IMG/VR virus record: IMGVR_UViG_2534682295_000015
Span: 1 to 10,636 of that record
Direction: 5' to 3' (one strand)
From: a virus
Lineage: Duplodnaviria > Heunggongvirae > Uroviricota > Caudoviricetes
Length of the DNA: 10,636 nt
In this document: positions 1 through 6,583 of the stretch, one piece after another
Numbering within the stretch: position 1 is the stretch's first letter
How the letters are laid out: every line of letters begins with the position of its first letter
Program-made: the position numbers and the translations under genes
Notes under the pieces: generated by a model
The model's database searches: none
Seen by the model: only the letters and a program-made list of their open reading frames with translations
What the model was told of the DNA's origin: nothing

Positions 1-115
1 AAAGGCAGAGAAAGCAACTAAAGGAAGCTACATCGTAGGGCATACATCTGTTAACCAGCACGGCAATTTAACAGGAGTTTTTGTTTGCCAAAAATGGAAA
101 GGAGAACCCGGTGGC

Positions 116-868
116 GTGATTGCGGAATGTCATGTTAACTGCCTGATTGAATCAGATGATCAGGCTTATGCAAACGCTGAATTCATAGCAGAGGCTAACC
201 CGGCTACCGTGCTGGAACTGCTGGATGAACGGGAAAGAAACCAGCAATACATCAAACGCCGCGACCAGGAGAACGAGGAGATTGCGCTTACGGTTGGGAA
301 GCTGAGAGTTGAGCTGGGAGCAGCAGAGAACAACCTTATTGATAGTGAATGCCATGTTGCTGAACTGGAAGAAGCGCTACGCGATAAGCAGGCGTTACTT
401 GAAGCATCAGAGAAGCGCATAGCAGAACTGGAAGCCGAACTCGTAAGCCAAACTTACAAGTTGCCACACACGCAGTTTGAACAGATTGCTAACCTCTACG
501 AAATGCAATTTGATGACGGTCGCACTTGTGCCTTTCACACTGATGCGCAAAAGGCTGAGCAATGGCTTCAGGCGTGCGACGGAAACAGGGTTCAGGAATA
601 CGTTAAGCTGGAACGGTTGCAGAATGCGCTGTCTGGCAACTCTCCGGTAACTCCGGATGGTTGGATAAGTTGTAGTGAGCGAATGCCGGATACCAAAACA
701 GCCGTTCTTGTTGCCGTGGAGTTTGACAGGAAAGGTGACTGGCGAATGAAGTGGGCGACTTACATCCCGGGGCATCCTGACGCTAATGATGGGTGGATAA
801 TTCCTGGTGCGTCGTGGAAACCGTCACACTGGATGCCGCTACCAGAACCGCCGCAGGAGGTGAACTGA
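116..868 (+). CDS. Ead/Ea22-like prophage protein with C-terminal DUF551-like domain (possibly 5'-truncated by window edge)
   Basis: 250-codon ORF from GTG 116, with AAGGAG-like SD at about 99-104. The same frame is open back to position 2, so the true start may lie upstream of the window. N-terminal part carries the ...AEFIAEANPATVLELLDE... signature plus a coiled-coil-like E/L/A/K-rich stretch, as I recall for Ead/Ea22-like proteins. C-terminal ~70 aa (WISCSERMPDTKTAVLVAVEF...WMPLPEPP) fits the DUF551 pattern. Stop TGA 866-868 overlaps the next ATG. Confidence 0.6.
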   Translation: MIAECHVNCLIESDDQAYANAEFIAEANPATVLELLDERERNQQYIKRRDQENEEIALTVGKLRVELGAAENNLIDSECHVAELEEALRDKQALLEASEKRIAELEAELVSQTYKLPHTQFEQIANLYEMQFDDGRTCAFHTDAQKAEQWLQACDGNRVQEYVKLERLQNALSGNSPVTPDGWISCSERMPDTKTAVLVAVEFDRKGDWRMKWATYIPGHPDANDGWIIPGASWKPSHWMPLPEPPQEVN

Positions 869-1263
869 TGGAAAATGAAGGCGATAATATCATCACACTG
901 GTGCAGCCAAAGCGCGATGAAGAGAAGCTGCTGAACATTACAGTAACTGGCAGAAAAAACTACACACAACAGAGCTGTAAGCATCGGGCCATTGAGGTTC
1001 ATGAACAGGATCACGTTATCCTGTGCTTGCAGTGCGGATGTGTTGTGGACCCTTTTCAGTATGTTCTGCGGTGTGCGAACGATGGTGAGGCTGTGGTGAG
1101 AGAGATTAGACAGCTTCATAACAGACACGATCAGCTCCGAGAATCTGTTGCCAGCCTCGAGCGTGAAGAAAAGAACACCAAAGCACGGTTGCGGGCAGCA
1201 AGAACTGCAATACTGTATGCGGAAAATGACCTTAAAAATATTGAGCAGAAGGTGAATCAATGA
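868..1263 (+). CDS. Hypothetical phage protein, Cys-rich zinc-ribbon-like segment plus C-terminal coiled coil
   Basis: ATG 868 overlaps the upstream stop (ATGA) and is preceded by GGAGG at 856-860; the ORF-track start at 793 lies inside the upstream gene and is rejected. Product MENEGDNIITLVQPK... (131 aa) contains CKH-x14-CLQCGC and a charged helical tail. No family recognised. Confidence 0.55.
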   Translation: MENEGDNIITLVQPKRDEEKLLNITVTGRKNYTQQSCKHRAIEVHEQDHVILCLQCGCVVDPFQYVLRCANDGEAVVREIRQLHNRHDQLRESVASLEREEKNTKARLRAARTAILYAENDLKNIEQKVNQ

Positions 1264-1343
1264 CCTGGCCTGAAGCATTCGCAAATGTAGGAACAGTAAT
1301 GGCGGTGGTGCTGGTTGTGTATTCGATTTGTCGCTGGAGATAA
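1260..1343 (+). CDS. Possible small single-helix membrane peptide (27 aa), translationally coupled
   Basis: ATG 1260 overlaps the upstream TGA (ATGA). Product MTWPEAFANVGTVMAVVLVVYSICRWR has one hydrophobic helix. Very short, so coding status is uncertain. Confidence 0.3.
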   Translation: MTWPEAFANVGTVMAVVLVVYSICRWR

Positions 1344-1396
1344 AAACGGTTTGCGGGAAAAGGAGAGTTAAGTAGAATTGCTGCGGGTGCTTGAGG

Positions 1397-1432
1397 CTAT
1401 CTGCCTTGGGCATGAACACCAAAGGCAGATAG
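1397..1432. repeat. Imperfect inverted repeat (12-13 bp arms, ~10 nt spacer) at the left edge of the low-GC island
   Basis: CTATCTGCCTTGG (1397-1409) ... CCAAAGGCAGATAG (1419-1432) are near-perfect reverse complements (one extra T). No T-run follows on either strand, so it is not a canonical intrinsic terminator. Confidence 0.5.
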
Positions 1433-1633
1433 AGAAAAACCCACCCGACTATAAATCAAAGTGTATTACCCCCATTTGTTGGACGATGAAATGGGTTTAG
1501 TTAACTATGTCGGTATCGACATGACTAAAACAACCTTAAATTGCTCGATTAATAGACAAGTAGTTTTGAAAGATTAAATTTATGCGATCCGGTATTTTCA
1601 AGGGATAGCCTTTATGAGGTTATCTTATGGGGT

Positions 1634-1662
1634 TAAAACATCAAGAACAGTTGTGTTATAAT
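1634..1662 (+). promoter_or_regulatory. Candidate sigma70 promoter with extended -10 (TGTTATAAT) upstream of the C5-methyltransferase gene
   Basis: TGnTATAAT at 1654-1662, about 33 nt upstream of ATG 1695, with a weak -35-like TTAAAA around 1633-1638. Weak SD-like AAGAGA at 1676-1681. Sequence-based prediction only. Confidence 0.3.
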
Positions 1663-1694
1663 ACATAGAAACTAATAAGAGACGTTGCAACTAT

Positions 1695-2846
1695 ATGAAT
1701 GTAATAGATTTGTTTTCTGGCGTTGGAGGTCTAAGTCTTGGTGCTGCACGTGCTGGATTTGATGTTAAAATGGCAGTTGAAATTGATCAACATGCTATTA
1801 ATACTCACGCAATTAATTTTCCAAGAAGTTTGCACGTCCAAGAAGATGTTTCTTTACTAAATGCAGAAATAATTAAGGGTTTTTTTAAAAACGATATGCC
1901 CATAGATGGTATTATTGGCGGTCCTCCGTGCCAAGGATTTAGTTCAATAGGCAAGGGGAATCCTGATGATAGCAGGAATCAGCTTTACATGCATTTCTAC
2001 CGTTTAGTATCAGAATTACAGCCATTATTCTTTTTGGCAGAAAATGTTCCAGGTATTATGCAAGAGAAATATTCTGGCATTAGAAATAAAGCATTTAATT
2101 TGGTTAGCGGTGATTATGATATTCTTGATCCCATCAAGGTAAAAGCATCTGATTATGGTGCTCCAACTATTCGAACTAGATATTTTTTTATCGGTGTAAA
2201 AAAATCATTGAAGCTTGATATTTCAGATGAAGTATTTATGCCTAAAATGATTGATCCGGTTACTGTAAAAGATGCTTTGTATGGATTACCAGATATTATC
2301 GATGCCAATTGGCAATCAGACTCTGAGAGTTGGCGAACAATTAAAAAAGATCGAAAAGGGGGATTTTATGAAAAATTATGGGGGCAGATCCCTCGGAATG
2401 TTGGTGATACAGAATCGATCGCTAAGTTAAAAAATAATATCATATCTGGATGTACCGGAACATTACATAGCAAAATCGTCCAAGAGCGTTATGCTTCCTT
2501 ATCTTTTGGGGAAACTGATAAAATTTCAAGATCTACAAGATTAGATCCAAATGGTTTTTGCCCGACTTTAAGGGCGGGAACCGCTAGAGATAAAGGAAGC
2601 TTTCAAGCCGTCAGGCCGATCCACCCTTATCATCCAAGAGTGATTACACCAAGAGAAGCTGCTAGATTACAAGGCTTCCCTGATTGGTTTCGCTTTCATG
2701 TAACTAAATGGCATAGTTTCAGACAAATAGGAAATAGCGTGTCACCAATAGTTGCTGAATATATATTAAAGGGGCTGTACAATTTATTAAATAAAAGAGT
2801 ACAGCCCGAATATTTAAACCATAATTCTTTGGAAGTTAGGGTATAA
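1695..2846 (+). CDS. DNA (cytosine-5)-methyltransferase, Dcm-like
   Basis: 383-aa ORF with canonical C5-MTase motifs in canonical order: motif I DLFSGVGG (1707-1730), motif IV catalytic GGPPCQGFS (PCQ at 1926-1934), motif VI ENV (2040-2048), motif X-like RQIGNSVSP near the C-terminus. AT-rich codon usage matches the island. Confidence 0.9.
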   Translation: MNVIDLFSGVGGLSLGAARAGFDVKMAVEIDQHAINTHAINFPRSLHVQEDVSLLNAEIIKGFFKNDMPIDGIIGGPPCQGFSSIGKGNPDDSRNQLYMHFYRLVSELQPLFFLAENVPGIMQEKYSGIRNKAFNLVSGDYDILDPIKVKASDYGAPTIRTRYFFIGVKKSLKLDISDEVFMPKMIDPVTVKDALYGLPDIIDANWQSDSESWRTIKKDRKGGFYEKLWGQIPRNVGDTESIAKLKNNIISGCTGTLHSKIVQERYASLSFGETDKISRSTRLDPNGFCPTLRAGTARDKGSFQAVRPIHPYHPRVITPREAARLQGFPDWFRFHVTKWHSFRQIGNSVSPIVAEYILKGLYNLLNKRVQPEYLNHNSLEVRV

Positions 2847-3803
2847 CCTATAGTATTTATAATAGTTATCCCGTTCATTTTCGTTTAAAGAGAACTCTTC
2901 AGCGGCTGCCTGATATGCTTCTTTATCAGGCAGTTTACTATCTAAATTTATCTTTTCTTTAATTGTTAGTGTTGGTATTGCTATTTCTTGCACGTCTTCC
3001 CAATTTGTTGAATAAAATTGCCAGTTAGAAAGGTCGCATGCCTTAGATAACTCTATATATTCTTGTTCTGAGGAGAAAAAACCTGATATTGTCAACATGG
3101 TATGACTGCCATCATTATATTGATTTAAGGATAATGGGTAATACTGAATCTTATCCTTACGTCCTGAAAGACCACGTTCTATTGCTGATCTAAAAGCGTT
3201 TGTAATAATTCGTATTAAAAGAGCTTTAATCTTACGATCTGAAAGATCTGCATTTGATATCTGAAGATTAAAATCAAGATACTTTTTCCCAAGCAATGAT
3301 TTTAATGAATTAATAAAAGCTTCTTTAAAAATATCTAAACTTTCTCCAACTCTACGTTGGTAATAAGAACTAGGATTTATGGGGAAGGTGACCTTCAAAA
3401 TATCAAAAGAGCTTACTTTAGTACTTAGTAAGTGTATATCATCTAGATCCGTTTGTATTTTTTTCGGGGAGGCATAGTCTAACCATGTTATTGATGGTTT
3501 AGAAAAACTATAATCAAGAATAAAGTCATGAGCTGATATTAGCTTACAATCAATACAATTATAAGGCAAATTATATTTTTGTCTGATGTGAGTAGACTCT
3601 TGTTCTTCGAGAGAAATCATATCAGAAAGAGCGATACGATTATGCATGATTCTAAAATCTTCAAGCATCGGACCACCAAAACCTATATATGTATATTCTT
3701 GAATATTTAGTCTTTTGCTTAAGAGGTTTAGGCTTTCGAGAAAAATCTCTCTATCAATAGACTTATTATGCCTTAAGTGATAGGGAATGTATTGTCCAGA
3801 CAT
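2814..3803 (-). CDS. Hypothetical protein (~329 aa), downstream partner of the GHKL ATPase; function unknown
   Basis: Minus-strand ORF; ATG at 3803-3801 overlaps the upstream TGA (TGATG), with an in-frame GTG one codon further upstream (3806). GAGGTG SD-like sequence about 7 nt upstream. Product MSGQYIPYHLRHNKSIDREIFLESL...EYTYIGFGGPMLEDF... has no catalytic motif I can assign. Its 3' end overlaps the convergent MTase 3' end by 33 bp (2814-2846). Confidence 0.7.
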   Translation of the reverse strand: MSGQYIPYHLRHNKSIDREIFLESLNLLSKRLNIQEYTYIGFGGPMLEDFRIMHNRIALSDMISLEEQESTHIRQKYNLPYNCIDCKLISAHDFILDYSFSKPSITWLDYASPKKIQTDLDDIHLLSTKVSSFDILKVTFPINPSSYYQRRVGESLDIFKEAFINSLKSLLGKKYLDFNLQISNADLSDRKIKALLIRIITNAFRSAIERGLSGRKDKIQYYPLSLNQYNDGSHTMLTISGFFSSEQEYIELSKACDLSNWQFYSTNWEDVQEIAIPTLTIKEKINLDSKLPDKEAYQAAAEEFSLNENERDNYYKYYRLYPNFQRIMV

Positions 3804-5194
3804 CACTTCACCTCTTCAATCACCGTATCAAAGCATTGCATCCCCACATCAGAAGCGCTAGCATCTTCATGTCCAAAGAAATATTTAGATAAAATTTTAA
3901 CATCTTCTTTCTCTCTGGTGAAGATTATTCGTACAGTAGAGCTTTTTTTTACTGGGGTAGGCAGCTTAGGTGTATATCGCCACTCATTTTTGTTTCTATT
4001 AGGGTTGGACCAGTTATTTTTTTTATCTTCTGGAGTTGATTGTGGGGTAATTTCAAATAAAGATTGAGCTTCATGTGACTGAGCTGACTTAAGTAATTTT
4101 TTCCCTTCTTCAAGATGCTCACCTTTCCACTGATTGGTGAATCGAATAAAATGCATCATCCCTTCAATCATTTTATTTCGTACATCATTGTACAATGTAG
4201 AACTAAGATCGACACCTCGTTTCGTTGTTGTTATTGGTAATTTTTCTGGGTTTTTACTGGTAAAGCGAACAACCCCAGAAATTGCTATAAATTGGGTATG
4301 AAACCTTGGTACATTAGCAAAGCCCCAACCTGTGAGATGTGTCTTATCACAATATAGAACAACGCGGTCATTGCAAATGACAGTCCATCCAGCATCATCA
4401 GAACTCCTTTTTTCTAAAACATCATCATTGTCATCTTCTAAATTTTTATAGAAGCCAACAACTAAATCGATATCAACATCGTCTATTTTAGCTTTATATA
4501 TGTATGGTTCTATTTTAGAATGATCAGTTATGATGTTAATCGGATTATGTTCAACAACAACTCCATTTAATTCTATTTTAAATCCTTTTTGAATAATAAA
4601 TGACAATGAGTGTTTTATCTGTAAAAAGAGATCAGTAAGATATGTGCTCTCATTAAATTTTTGTGCCACATTAGAATGGAGTTTTTTTATCTCTATAGTT
4701 GTGCCTGTTGGATTTTTGTTATCATAGTCACTCTCGTGCATCGGTATTTTCCAACCATCACCATCGATCCAATCAGGTGTTATATCTACAGTGAATGCGC
4801 CATCGGGATTATTCGATTGTATTGAGCAATCTCTACCCATTTTAAAAATGGCTCTTTTCATACCAATACCATAGACGCCAACGGTGCCTTCATTTTCTTC
4901 TTCTTTTTGATGGGGTCGTCCCATTTTAAAAGCATATTCTCGGAAGCTTTTAGGGATACCTCCGCAATTGTCTTCTATAATAAAGACATCTTTATTAATC
5001 GTAAGTTTCGCATAAAATCCTTCATATGGTTTTGAAGTTTTTTTTGTGTCTTTTATTGTACGTAAAGCCCCATCGACGCAGTTATCAAGCAGATCAAGTA
5101 TGGCATCGTTTAAGTCGATATCTCGAGTTAGCATACTTACAAAAAATCTTTTACTAGGACTAAAGTCTGCTGTTGGAGTCGTGTTCTCAGTCAT
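3803..5194 (-). CDS. GHKL-superfamily (Bergerat-fold, MutL/MORC/Hsp90-like) ATPase, 463 aa
   Basis: N-terminal region carries the three ATP-binding motifs in canonical order: N-box-like DLLDNCVDGA (aa 34-43, nt 5066-5095), G1 box EDNCGGI (aa 74-80, nt 4955-4975), G2 box GVYGIGMK (aa 106-113, nt 4856-4879). The C-terminal ~300 aa are unassigned. ATG at 5194-5192. Confidence 0.8.
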   Translation of the reverse strand: MTENTTPTADFSPSKRFFVSMLTRDIDLNDAILDLLDNCVDGALRTIKDTKKTSKPYEGFYAKLTINKDVFIIEDNCGGIPKSFREYAFKMGRPHQKEEENEGTVGVYGIGMKRAIFKMGRDCSIQSNNPDGAFTVDITPDWIDGDGWKIPMHESDYDNKNPTGTTIEIKKLHSNVAQKFNESTYLTDLFLQIKHSLSFIIQKGFKIELNGVVVEHNPINIITDHSKIEPYIYKAKIDDVDIDLVVGFYKNLEDDNDDVLEKRSSDDAGWTVICNDRVVLYCDKTHLTGWGFANVPRFHTQFIAISGVVRFTSKNPEKLPITTTKRGVDLSSTLYNDVRNKMIEGMMHFIRFTNQWKGEHLEEGKKLLKSAQSHEAQSLFEITPQSTPEDKKNNWSNPNRNKNEWRYTPKLPTPVKKSSTVRIIFTREKEDVKILSKYFFGHEDASASDVGMQCFDTVIEEVK

Positions 5195-5246
5195 AATTTA
5201 CTCTCTATGTGTTTGGGAAAATAAATACCTTAAGTGCAAATTGTTG

Positions 5247-5274
5247 ATTTTAAACGCTTCGCATGCGAAGTCAA
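5247..5274 (-). promoter_or_regulatory. Candidate sigma70 promoter of the GHKL operon (TTGACT - 16 nt - TAAAAT on minus strand) with an embedded 14-bp palindrome
   Basis: Reverse complement of 5240-5280 reads ...cgTTGACTtcgcatgcgaagcgttTAAAATcaacaa... : -35 TTGACT (plus 5269-5274), 16-nt spacer, -10 TAAAAT (plus 5247-5252), about 50 nt upstream of ATG 5194. The perfect palindrome CTTCGCATGCGAAG (5257-5270) fills the spacer and overlaps the -35. Confidence 0.35.
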
Positions 5275-5368
5275 CGATGTTAAGAAAGAAAGTGCATGTG
5301 ATCTAACAGTATGTTTTTAAAAAAAGATTAGCTTTATGAGAATTCAGGACTGAATCCCGTGAGAGGAA

Positions 5369-5384
5369 AATAACATATGTTATT
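5369..5384. repeat. Perfect 16-bp palindrome AATAACATATGTTATT in the island's regulatory region
   Basis: Read directly: the sequence equals its own reverse complement. Followed by two TTGTTGCA direct repeats at 5383-5390 and 5410-5417. Confidence 0.6.
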
Positions 5385-5693
5385 GTTGCATTGCTGTGTT
5401 GTTTGGGATTTGTTGCACCATTCTGGCGTTGGTATATCTAGTTCGTTGTTCATTTTGTTAATTGTACAACAGGCAGACAACAGAGAGCTTTTAGCCTAGT
5501 TAGCTTACGAAATTAAACAACTAAGATTATCGGCGGGGAGTGGTCACCGCTACTCTTTGGCTAGGAGACTTCAACGCAACCGCACACAACCAGCTTCGGC
5601 GGGTTTTGTTTTTTCCTGGCATTCTGGTTTACAATTTGCGTGCTAGCTTGAACAACTGGCATCTGCTGCACTGCGCCATCGAGAGATTGAGAA

Positions 5694-6293
5694 ATGGCGC
5701 ATATACAACTGGTCAAACAAACTTCTTCTGGTTTACTTCTCCCGGCGACGCCGGAGAGTTGCGATTTTCTGCATCAAATCAAAATAGGTGAGTGGATACA
5801 CGCAGATTTTAAGCGTGTGCGTAACTACGCATTCCACAAGCGTTTTTTCAAACTCCTGCAACTGGGATTCGATTACTGGACTCCGGTCGGTGGGGCGATC
5901 ACGCCTCGCGAACGAGAACTGCTGTCTGGTTTCGTTGATTACCTGTGCGAATCAGTTGGTCGGGAACACACGCCAGCCCTGAGTGATGCCGCAGAGCAAT
6001 ACCTTAACACCGTTGCGACTCGTAGAACCCGGGATACGGCGTTGCTAAAGTCGTTTGAGGCTTTCCGCGAGTGGGTAACCATTCAGGCCGGATTTTACAC
6101 CGAGCATATTTATCCGGACGGTAGCCGTGGGCGTCGGGCAAAATCCATCGCTTTTGCGAATATGGACGAAGTCGAGTTTCAGCAGGTTTATAAATCTGTA
6201 CTGAATGTGCTGTGGAACTGGATTCTGTTCCGTAAATTCTCCTCTCAGGAGGAAGTTGAAAATGTGGCCGCACAACTACTGGAGTTTGCGTAA
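5694..6293 (+). CDS. Conserved lambdoid nin-region protein (199 aa), function unknown; resembles the DUF1367 family as I recall it
   Basis: ORF with ATG 5694, GC content and codon usage matching the phage backbone. Stop TAA 6291-6293 overlaps the next ATG (TAATG). Family assignment is from memory and unverified. Confidence 0.7.
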   Translation: MAHIQLVKQTSSGLLLPATPESCDFLHQIKIGEWIHADFKRVRNYAFHKRFFKLLQLGFDYWTPVGGAITPRERELLSGFVDYLCESVGREHTPALSDAAEQYLNTVATRRTRDTALLKSFEAFREWVTIQAGFYTEHIYPDGSRGRRAKSIAFANMDEVEFQQVYKSVLNVLWNWILFRKFSSQEEVENVAAQLLEFA

Positions 6294-6583
6294 TGGTGAA
6301 TTTACGTAAAGCGGCTAAAGGCCAGATATGCCAGATCAGAATCCCTGGCTACTGCAATCACAATCCCGAAACCTCTGTGCTGGCGCATTACAGGCTGGCG
6401 GGAACGTGCGGAACAGCGATAAAGCCACACGATATGCAGGCAGCGATTGCCTGTAACTCATGCCACGATTTAATCGACGGGAGAGTAAAAACCAGCGATT
6501 ACACCAAAGAAGAATTGCGCCTGATGCATGCAGAAGGTGTTTTTCGCACACAAGAGATCTGGAGAAAGGACGGTTATTTATGA
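6293..6583 (+). CDS. YbcO-like (DUF1364) putative zinc-binding nuclease of lambdoid phages
   Basis: 96-aa product with CQIRIPGYCNHNPETSVLAH...CNSCHDLIDG (CxxxxxxxC ... CxxCH), which resembles prophage YbcO-type proteins as I recall them. Coupled to both neighbours by overlapping stop/start codons. Confidence 0.6.
   Translation: MVNLRKAAKGQICQIRIPGYCNHNPETSVLAHYRLAGTCGTAIKPHDMQAAIACNSCHDLIDGRVKTSDYTKEELRLMHAEGVFRTQEIWRKDGYL

Follow-up and report, generated by a model that had tools for sequence, protein, structure and literature searches.

An AT-rich prophage island at a defence-gene hotspot carries a conserved methylase, MORC-like ATPase and PF20553 cassette with a probable restriction-modification-like role

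Introduction

GHKL ATPases of the MORC and paraMORC groups have been predicted to work in restriction-modification (R-M) systems with DNA cytosine (DCM) methylases (Iyer, Abhiman & Aravind 2008, PMC2292703), and VcSduA, a Shedu type I-D protein in which a paraMORC3 GHKL ATPase is fused to a DUF4263 PD-(D/E)xK nuclease, is experimentally anti-phage (PMC12137116). Enterobacterales also hold R-M-associated, two-component-like systems composed of a C5 methylase with HATPase_c_3-HEF_HK plus Response_reg_2 proteins (Bellieny-Rabelo et al. 2020, 10.1101/2020.08.26.268516), and type I toxin-antitoxin loci of the hokW-sokW/hokD kind are known from prophages of enterohaemorrhagic Escherichia coli (EHEC; PMC8621323). 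Here, we analyse an AT-rich island in a 10,636-nt stretch of lambdoid prophage DNA (IMG/VR record IMGVR_UViG_2534682295_000015, positions 1 to 10,636; hereafter the window), which lies across a hok/sok locus and carries three genes, encoding a C5 DNA methylase, a MORC-like GHKL ATPase and a protein of the PF20553 (Methyltransf_35) family. We conclude that the block was acquired horizontally as a cassette, about 3.9 kb in length, which probably encodes one three-gene, R-M-like immune module.

Results

Composition and boundaries of the island

The island spans 1443-5570, as delimited by its guanine-cytosine (GC) content and by breakpoints against the related loci L009, L010 and L002. Its GC content is 34.9%, against 49.1% in 1-1442 and 51.1% in 5571-10636; in 400-nt sliding windows, the GC fraction stays at 0.29-0.38 throughout about 1400 to 5500 and at 0.45-0.58 elsewhere, and the 4.1-kb segment of minimum GC begins at 1401. 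At third codon positions, the three island genes have a GC content of 25-27% versus 50-60% for the flank genes, and the tetranucleotide L1 distance is 0.60 between island and backbone versus 0.30 between the two halves of the backbone. An earlier note on this DNA had claimed a drop in GC relative to the phage backbone at 1440-5540 and had suggested these sliding-window and tetranucleotide analyses; the compositional difference is real, a 15-point fall with sharp edges, and the limits given were correct to about 30 nt.

Island-free relatives place the breakpoints precisely. L009, an island-free O157 prophage, aligns with window positions 825-1442 at 96%, after which, in a pairwise alignment, 317 nt of L009 (2114-2430, holding hokD) are swapped for window 1443-5570 and homology restarts at 5571. 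The flank genes all lie on the plus strand, running from an Ead/Ea22-DUF551 gene and a phrog_1621 open reading frame (ORF) to DUF1367, YbcO and a DUF1133/Q-like protein, and, as the earlier note had described, three cargo genes break this lambdoid series: the plus-strand C5 methylase gene at 1695-2846 and a minus-strand two-gene operon at 5194-2814. No terminal direct or inverted repeats were found at the island edges, and likewise no transposase or integrase genes.

The further claim that the island brings its own promoters and palindromes fared less well, being weakly supported and without statistical backing, since 19 promoter-like sites were counted and 18.0 +/- 4.4 are expected by chance. 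Two sites are plausibly placed, even though the region is not enriched for them over chance: TTAAAA-18-TATAAT with a TG extension (1633-1662, plus strand), 33 nt 5' of the methylase start codon, and TTGACT-16-TAAAAT (5247-5274, minus strand), about 50 nt 5' of the ATPase start codon. The best local hairpins lie at 1397-1432, which is part of the hok leader and not of the cargo, and at 2772-2807, where 14-nt arms within the methylase 3' end, just 3' of the PF20553 stop codon, may form a terminator for the minus-strand operon.

Presence and absence among E. coli prophages

The island was found in 172 of 5426 complete E. coli genomes (at least 99% identity and at least 80% coverage), always on the chromosome and never on a plasmid, with carriers including O157:H7 (EDL933 and 86-24 among them), O111:H8 and others; in EDL933, it lies within a Rac-like prophage with recE, kilR, sieB, ydaT and ydaV. 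No match to the island came up in a megablast search of 50,697 deposited phage genomes. A query made by joining the flanks identified 8 genomes in which they are only about 600-700 nt apart, separated by an annotated hokD or Hok/Gef gene. The comparison with related prophages that the earlier note had proposed thus finds the flanks contiguous without the island, with only the hokD locus between them, and the block is far from universal in related prophages, given its presence in only 172-176 of the 5426 genomes.

The IMG/VR prophage contig L109 matches the left junction of the window and the island at 99.6% over 7.6 kb and, because it has the same left junction and island, the arrangement is not an assembly artefact. 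At least 80% of the window was found in one place in 0 of the 5426 genomes, the best reaching 71%, from 1260, and the leftmost 1.26 kb matches, at 100% identity, another prophage of the same O157 strains. By these alignments, the window is a mosaic whose left junction is common only to contig L109.

Insertion within a hok/sok locus

Both edges of the cargo fall within the parts of a single type I toxin-antitoxin locus. On the left, alignment to intact hokD loci identifies 1370-1445 (plus strand) as the truncated 5' leader of the hok mRNA and sok region, with the alignment to the intact loci of L009 and L010 ending at 1442-1445; the Rfam sok model (RF01794) matches 1385-1509 partially, at 50.2 bits, under its gathering score of 59, compared with 107.8 bits for the intact L009 locus. 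On the right, alignment and translations assign 5376-5607 (plus strand) to a degraded hok coding region followed by the hok 3' end and terminator hairpin. This segment shares 85.5% identity with the region of L002 that is annotated as a Hok/Gef gene, and a multiple alignment equates it with the hok coding region of another allele and its 3' hairpin. The hok frame in the window has no in-frame start codon, carries a premature TAG at 5439-5441 and stops after 21 codons, and no intact hok ORF with a full sok/leader RNA is present in the window.

Because of the leader and hok alignments, the truncated sok and the dead hok frame, we place the cargo inside a hok/sok locus that it has, on this evidence, inactivated, and we put the net foreign cargo at about 1446-5375 (~3.9 kb). 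The sequences flanking the island are two halves of a locus of the hokW-sokW/hokD kind described previously (PMC8621323), and island-free relatives hold an intact hokD; in contrast to those loci, the one in the window is split and its hok frame destroyed. Directly 5' of the hok leader lies a 26-codon hydrophobic ORF (MTWPEAFANVGTVMAVVLVVYSICRWR; 1262-1342, plus strand), and the stretch from 1260 on accompanies the island into prophages whose left flank differs.

Alternative cargos at the same site

We retrieved 80 IMG/VR loci by means of the DUF1367 protein; 12 of them hold the trio in identical arrangement, and in about 20 the leader and hokD are contiguous. Among 58 IMG/VR loci, the 4.5 kb 5' of DUF1367 is occupied by at least 25 distinct types of sequence, most of them with 30-40% GC. 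When the large ORFs of these alternative cargos were scanned against PADLOC, matches were obtained to IetAS (locus L096); to C5 methylases, paired in L140 with a type II restriction enzyme (REase_II) and in L099 with a PtuA/HEC-04-like AAA ATPase; to PD-T7-3 (3.5e-168; L121); and to an AbiLi-like protein (L153) and a CARF-adenosine-deaminase-like protein (L128). In another Rac-like prophage, that of NRZ103545, IetA and IetS (PADLOC E-values 1.8e-131 and 8.2e-271) take the place of the cassette, with ydaV on one side and a hok remnant with DUF1367 on the other. Several alternative AT-rich cargos (L105, L119, L143, L162 and L095) had no PADLOC match.

The cassette site, which lies immediately 5' of the DUF1367/YbcO/Q-like late-regulatory block, is therefore a hotspot for defence genes in E. 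coli prophages of the lambdoid and Rac-like kinds. The earlier note had assigned the block to the class of locus where phage-encoded defence systems are found, and this is directly supported because the alternative cargos include known defence systems, with IetAS, PD-T7-3 and a type II R-M system found at the same site in other prophages. The block combines atypical composition, presence or absence between conserved flanks and alternative cargos at its position, and it can accordingly be described as a moron in a cargo hotspot. The PADLOC-negative cargos 5' of DUF1367 include gene pairs encoding 184 + 310, 363 + 333 and 385 + 385 amino acids and a 349-amino-acid ORF, which are candidate systems in their own right.

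The three cargo proteins

The gene at 1695-2846 (plus strand) encodes a 383-amino-acid protein that matches PF00145 (2.6e-61, profile positions 1-322 of 324) and, over the cut-off, TIGR00675 (dcm, 9.6e-46); in PADLOC it matches MTase_II (2e-98) and otherwise the generic DruM and DrmMII models. All catalytic motifs are present (FSGVGG, GGPPCQGFS, AENVPG, REAARLQGFPD and IGNSVSP), and these motifs are conserved across 58 linked homologues, identifying the protein by sequence as a C5 DNA methylase with an intact catalytic apparatus. Residues 1-367 are identical to the solved structure PDB 3G7U, which we take to be a structural-genomics deposit of a putative DNA modification methyltransferase of prophage CP-933R. 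The best characterised relative in the PDB is HaeIII, only over the catalytic N-terminal 200 residues. The 58 linked methylases form one subfamily, with a median of 52% identity to the window methylase, and share long conserved stretches in the usual target-specificity region.

On the minus strand, the first gene of the operon (3803-5194) encodes a 463-amino-acid ATPase. The PF20553 gene is translationally coupled to it, the start codon of PF20553 sharing 1 nt with the ATPase stop codon. Structural modelling predicts a GHKL module followed by an S5 fold with its conserved Lys, the overall fold being nearest to MORC, with MORC3, SMCHD1 and MORC2 as the best structural matches; a profile search of PDB sequences reached MORC3 no better than at E = 0.029. 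Bergerat motifs I-IV (DLLDN38CVD, D75NCGG, G106VYGIG and G164T) are each kept in at least 93% of 81 sequences, and the C-terminus is short and helical. Beyond PF13589, no match was obtained in PADLOC, NCBIfam or permissive Pfam searches. The family is large, with more than 5,400 relatives at E <= 0.001, and about 45% identity is held from Enterobacteria to cyanobacteria, Nitrospirae, Chloroflexi, Firmicutes, Planctomycetes and a methanogen.

The second gene of the operon (2814-3803, minus strand, ATG at 3803) encodes a 329-amino-acid protein with a class I Rossmann methyltransferase fold, and its 3' end overlaps that of the methylase gene convergently by 33 nt. Both a profile match to PF20553 and a seven-strand Rossmann fold support the assignment, and the predicted S-adenosylmethionine (SAM)-site residues G44 (in IGFGG), E67 and D110, present in at least 93% of 77 PF20553 sequences, lie at the expected strand ends of the model, which suggests that the protein binds SAM. 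Its nearest structural neighbours are 5-methylcytosine (m5C), N2-methylguanosine (m2G) and N2,N2-dimethylguanosine (m2,2G) RNA methyltransferases and 2'-O-methyltransferases, among which the model does not discriminate, and a Foldseek search against viral structures returned generic class I methyltransferases only (TM 0.3-0.4). A candidate 2'-O-methyltransferase K-D-K-E tetrad (K15/D110/K138/E284) was dropped, since K138 is not conserved in the wider PF20553 family.

The protein has no relative among PDB sequences and, beyond PF20553 itself, no match in PADLOC, NCBIfam or permissive Pfam searches. The family comprises about 2,200 clusters at 50% identity, and no domain fusions occur in the top 150 of 2,210 representative clusters, all of which are stand-alone proteins of about 330 amino acids. 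For both the ATPase and the PF20553 protein, PADLOC-DB v2.0, which includes Shedu, mza, Druantia, DISARM and MADS, yields 0 families at E <= 0.01, both proteins fall into PHROG families of unknown function, and no nuclease domain was recognised in either by Pfam, PADLOC, NCBIfam or structure searches.

The trio as one conserved mobile unit

An exact-pattern scan of 100,044 species genomes, one genome per species, identified at least 344 loci, of which 80 were retrieved for neighbourhood counts. The PF20553 gene lies directly 3' of the ATPase gene in 77 of these 80 loci, which span many phyla and one archaeon, usually with an overlap of 4 nt, and a C5 methylase (at least 250 bits) is found within 4 kb of the pair in about 67. 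The methylase gene is upstream and co-directional in about 31 loci, with gaps of a few nt, downstream and convergent in about 23, which like the window show a 3' overlap of some 30 nt, and downstream and co-directional in 6. A Vsr mismatch endonuclease gene is near 29 of the 80 loci. Vsr is the usual companion of active m5C methylases. No other recurrent neighbour was detected among the 80 loci, and no conserved nuclease neighbour except Vsr.

The core of ATPase and PF20553 genes has more AT than the DNA around it in 64 of 68 species loci, the median difference being -10.6 GC points. In two other prophages, a food-metagenome lambdoid phage and the end of an Enterobacter asburiae prophage, the trio recurs at 83% and 75% protein identity, with DNA homology limited to the three genes and none in the flanks; in L011 and L012 the cassette DNA homology spans only 1643-5176 and 1689-5176. 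These comparisons indicate that the three genes are transferred together, as one 3.5-kb unit, from one prophage position to another, unrelated one and that methylase, ATPase and PF20553 protein form, as judged from gene neighbourhoods, one conserved cassette across bacterial phyla rather than three unrelated passengers. The earlier description of the cargo as a C5 methylase and a GHKL ATPase operon was borne out and can be refined, in that the operon encodes a MORC-like ATPase together with a PF20553 methyltransferase-fold protein.

Variant loci were also encountered. Three syntenic loci of the Leptolyngbya/Phormidesmis type (L043, L075 and L092) are without PF20553 and contain GNAT, ATPase, optional C5 methylase, UvrD helicase and MFS genes; in 2 of the 3, the C5 methylase directly follows the ATPase, in the place of PF20553, and no replacement effector is present in any of them, with only the C5 methylase or nothing beside the UvrD and GNAT genes. 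In L014, L015, L022, L030, L044 and others, all from cyanobacteria, the pair has no C5 methylase within 8 kb, and in Scytonema it is inserted between NADH dehydrogenase-type (Proton_antipo) genes. In five species, a second C5 methylase with a larger GHKL protein (572-608 amino acids, 130-140 bits to the window ATPase family) adjoins the trio; such side-by-side GHKL-methylase systems are seen in L007 of Serratia marcescens, at 9672-12662, and also in L026, L049 and L071.

Other features of the window

A single ORF at 116-868 (plus strand) joins an Ead/Ea22-like N-terminus to a DUF551 C-terminus, two parts that some relatives, such as L009 and L010, encode separately. Downstream of the island, the DUF1133 protein (6460-7134, plus strand; 3e-106, with a weak Phage_antitermQ match at 8.2e-8) is probably the Q-type antiterminator of the prophage; its mechanical ORF start at 6460 overlaps YbcO, and RefSeq homologues begin near 6580. 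A second methylase, of the N6/N4 type (7707-8765, plus strand; PF01555, 2.4e-43), lies at backbone GC between the Q-like gene and the tRNA genes and seems to be solitary, a phage methylase for which no partner gene is evident. There follow a tRNA with a CAT anticodon (8806-8881), tRNA Arg-TCT (8962-9038), the small RNA (sRNA) STnc100 (9148-9356, 175 bits) and an AgvB/AsxR-type anti-sRNA (9358-9417, minus strand; 56.6 bits against a gathering score of 56), and this set at 8806-9417 is the usual EHEC-prophage sRNA cluster 3' of Q. The ORF at 9562-10636 (plus strand) runs off the window end and has about 85% DNA identity to a SASA family carbohydrate esterase (nanS-p type) gene in related prophages. 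No stx gene is present in the window.

Discussion

Taken together, the conserved linkage of the three genes and their position favour a function of the trio as an R-M-like defence module, which we regard as probable on sequence grounds. In such a module, the C5 methyltransferase would mark the DNA of host and prophage at one short, fixed motif, and the MORC-like ATPase would form a complex with the co-translated PF20553 SAM-fold protein, as suggested by the 1-nt stop/start overlap and by the adjacency of the two genes in 77 of 80 loci. Judging from fold and motifs, this complex would bind ATP, dimerise and clamp or loop DNA, in the manner of MORC, MutL and topoisomerase GHKL modules. Methylase linkage and hotspot position suggest that its targets would be DNA molecules lacking the m5C mark, for instance those of an incoming phage or plasmid, whose replication or expression it would block. 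Because no nuclease domain is recognisable, the effector step could be the activity of a cryptic nuclease or, about equally likely, a BREX-type block without degradation; the third possibility is a SAM-dependent modification by PF20553. In a more specific version, which we put forward only tentatively and think rather unlikely, restriction would be nuclease-free: an ATP-driven, MORC-like clamp guided by the missing C5-methyl mark would recruit PF20553 as a SAM-dependent enzyme, with compaction, silencing or a blocking modification in place of cleavage.

Several observations weigh against an R-M-like module. The catalytic-base position in GHKL motif I of the ATPase is an invariant Asp (Asp34) and not Glu, and the target-recognition region of the linked methylases is conserved, unlike the diversifying specificity of classical R-M systems. 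Twelve of the 80 loci, mostly from cyanobacteria, hold the ATPase-PF20553 pair without an adjacent methylase; therefore, unless these genomes have an unlinked methylase, the pair cannot be obligatorily lethal to self DNA that is unmethylated. The searched literature contains no experiment on the trio.

Other readings of the block have to be set against these data. That the island is not real, its low GC being native to the phage lineage or a chance fluctuation, has nothing in its favour save the general mosaicism of lambdoid phages; it is refuted by the island-free relatives with identical flanks and by the composition, with its 15-point fall and sharp edges, and the same genes are present in other phyla, leaving this reading practically no chance. 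We also think it unlikely that the cassette unites two independent passengers, an orphan anti-restriction phage methylase and a separate ATPase-PF20553 module, for instance of an abortive-infection or toxin-like kind, that senses something besides methylation. The 12 loci without an adjacent methylase, the opposite strand and own promoter-like site of the methylase gene, and the frequency of orphan methylases in lambdoid phages, with a second one in the window at 7707-8765, are all consistent with this. The strongest counter-argument is the linkage of the methylase, which holds in about 67 of 80 loci from different phyla and in three gene orders; moreover, intergenic gaps are of a few nt or replaced by 3' overlaps of about 30 nt, the methylases are one co-inherited subfamily, and the trio travels as one 3.5-kb unit between unrelated prophage positions.

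By analogy with its nearest structural relatives, MORC3, SMCHD1 and MORC2, the ATPase could instead belong to an epigenetic or regulatory module, in which a MORC-like clamp reads or helps to write methylation so as to compact or silence DNA, tuning prophage or host expression. The conserved target-recognition region of the methylase, the presence of two methyltransferase-fold proteins in one module and the failure to find a nuclease would fit such a role; what weighs most against it, however, is the hotspot context, the site being otherwise occupied by bona fide defence systems; moreover, the cassette is sporadic, AT-rich and mobile like defence genes, and its occurrence in only 3% of E. coli genomes is unexpected for a housekeeping regulator, so that we consider this quite improbable. 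Methylase/effector pairs of the R-M-like kind are known to behave as addiction modules, and the cassette sits exactly in, and inactivates, a hok/sok locus, which raises the thought that it is a selfish element stabilising the prophage by R-M-like post-segregational killing in replacement of the disrupted toxin-antitoxin pair. Such a role would be compatible with defence, but many other cargos of the site (IetAS and PD-T7-3) are not addiction modules, and pairs lacking a methylase exist; we see only a slim chance that addiction is the primary function.

If the trio is a working immune system, a widespread family of at least 344 loci would be added to the methylation-based defences, with an effector that is no recognisable nuclease, and an E. 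coli O157 prophage, with one crystal structure in hand, would offer a tractable model for MORC-type ATPases that read DNA methylation. Were restriction by the trio nuclease-free, it would be a prokaryotic counterpart, and a possible ancestor, of the coupling between eukaryotic MORC/SMCHD1 and DNA methylation in silencing. In EHEC, this CP-933R-type prophage module may influence how O157:H7 and O111:H8 lineages take up phages and plasmids. The hok/sok-marked hotspot 5' of DUF1367 in Rac-like and lambdoid prophages, for its part, provides PADLOC-negative AT-rich cargos that can be mined for further systems.

Among known systems, a classical type II R-M system shares with the trio a self-marking methylase and linked genes that presumably act on unmarked DNA, and no restriction endonuclease gene is linked to the window methylase. 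BREX blocks phage without a recognised nuclease. The cassette differs from it in holding no BREX genes, and PADLOC matches only the methylase; the ATPase-PF20553 pair is covered neither by PADLOC v2.0 nor by the searched literature. With VcSduA (PMC12137116), the trio has in common a GHKL ATPase in a setting of anti-phage defence, for which VcSduA requires ATP hydrolysis, and the defence role of that protein supports, in principle, a MORC-like R-M logic for the trio; VcSduA, in contrast, is a single protein with a nuclease and without a methylase, whereas the window ATPase has no nuclease domain and no Shedu match in PADLOC. The systems of Bellieny-Rabelo et al. (10.1101/2020.08.26.268516) likewise combine a C5 methylase with a GHKL protein related to paraMORC and with a single small partner, but their partner is receiver-like and their ATPase carries extra HEF_HK and HATPase_c domains, whereas the window ATPase has 463 amino acids and its partner a Rossmann methyltransferase fold. 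The methylase and 608-amino-acid GHKL protein beside the trio in the Serratia locus L007, the latter scoring 131 bits to the window ATPase family, are possibly a pair of the Bellieny-Rabelo kind.

The trio further resembles the predicted MORC/paraMORC R-M operons (PMC2292703), which also place a GHKL+S5 ATPase beside a DNA cytosine methylase, often with Vsr, and have a sporadic, lateral distribution; self-marking combined with ATP-driven action on unmarked DNA is the very logic that Iyer et al. proposed for them. Those operons add superfamily II helicases and/or endonucleases (RE fold, HNH, HKD or TIR), whereas the only constant partner of the ATPase in the trio is PF20553, without helicase or nuclease. 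An AT-rich prophage moron is in itself ordinary; what is notable here is the content of the cassette and the well-defined hotspot that it occupies, and the trio is best placed as an uncharacterised form of the methylation-based, GHKL-driven, R-M-like systems.

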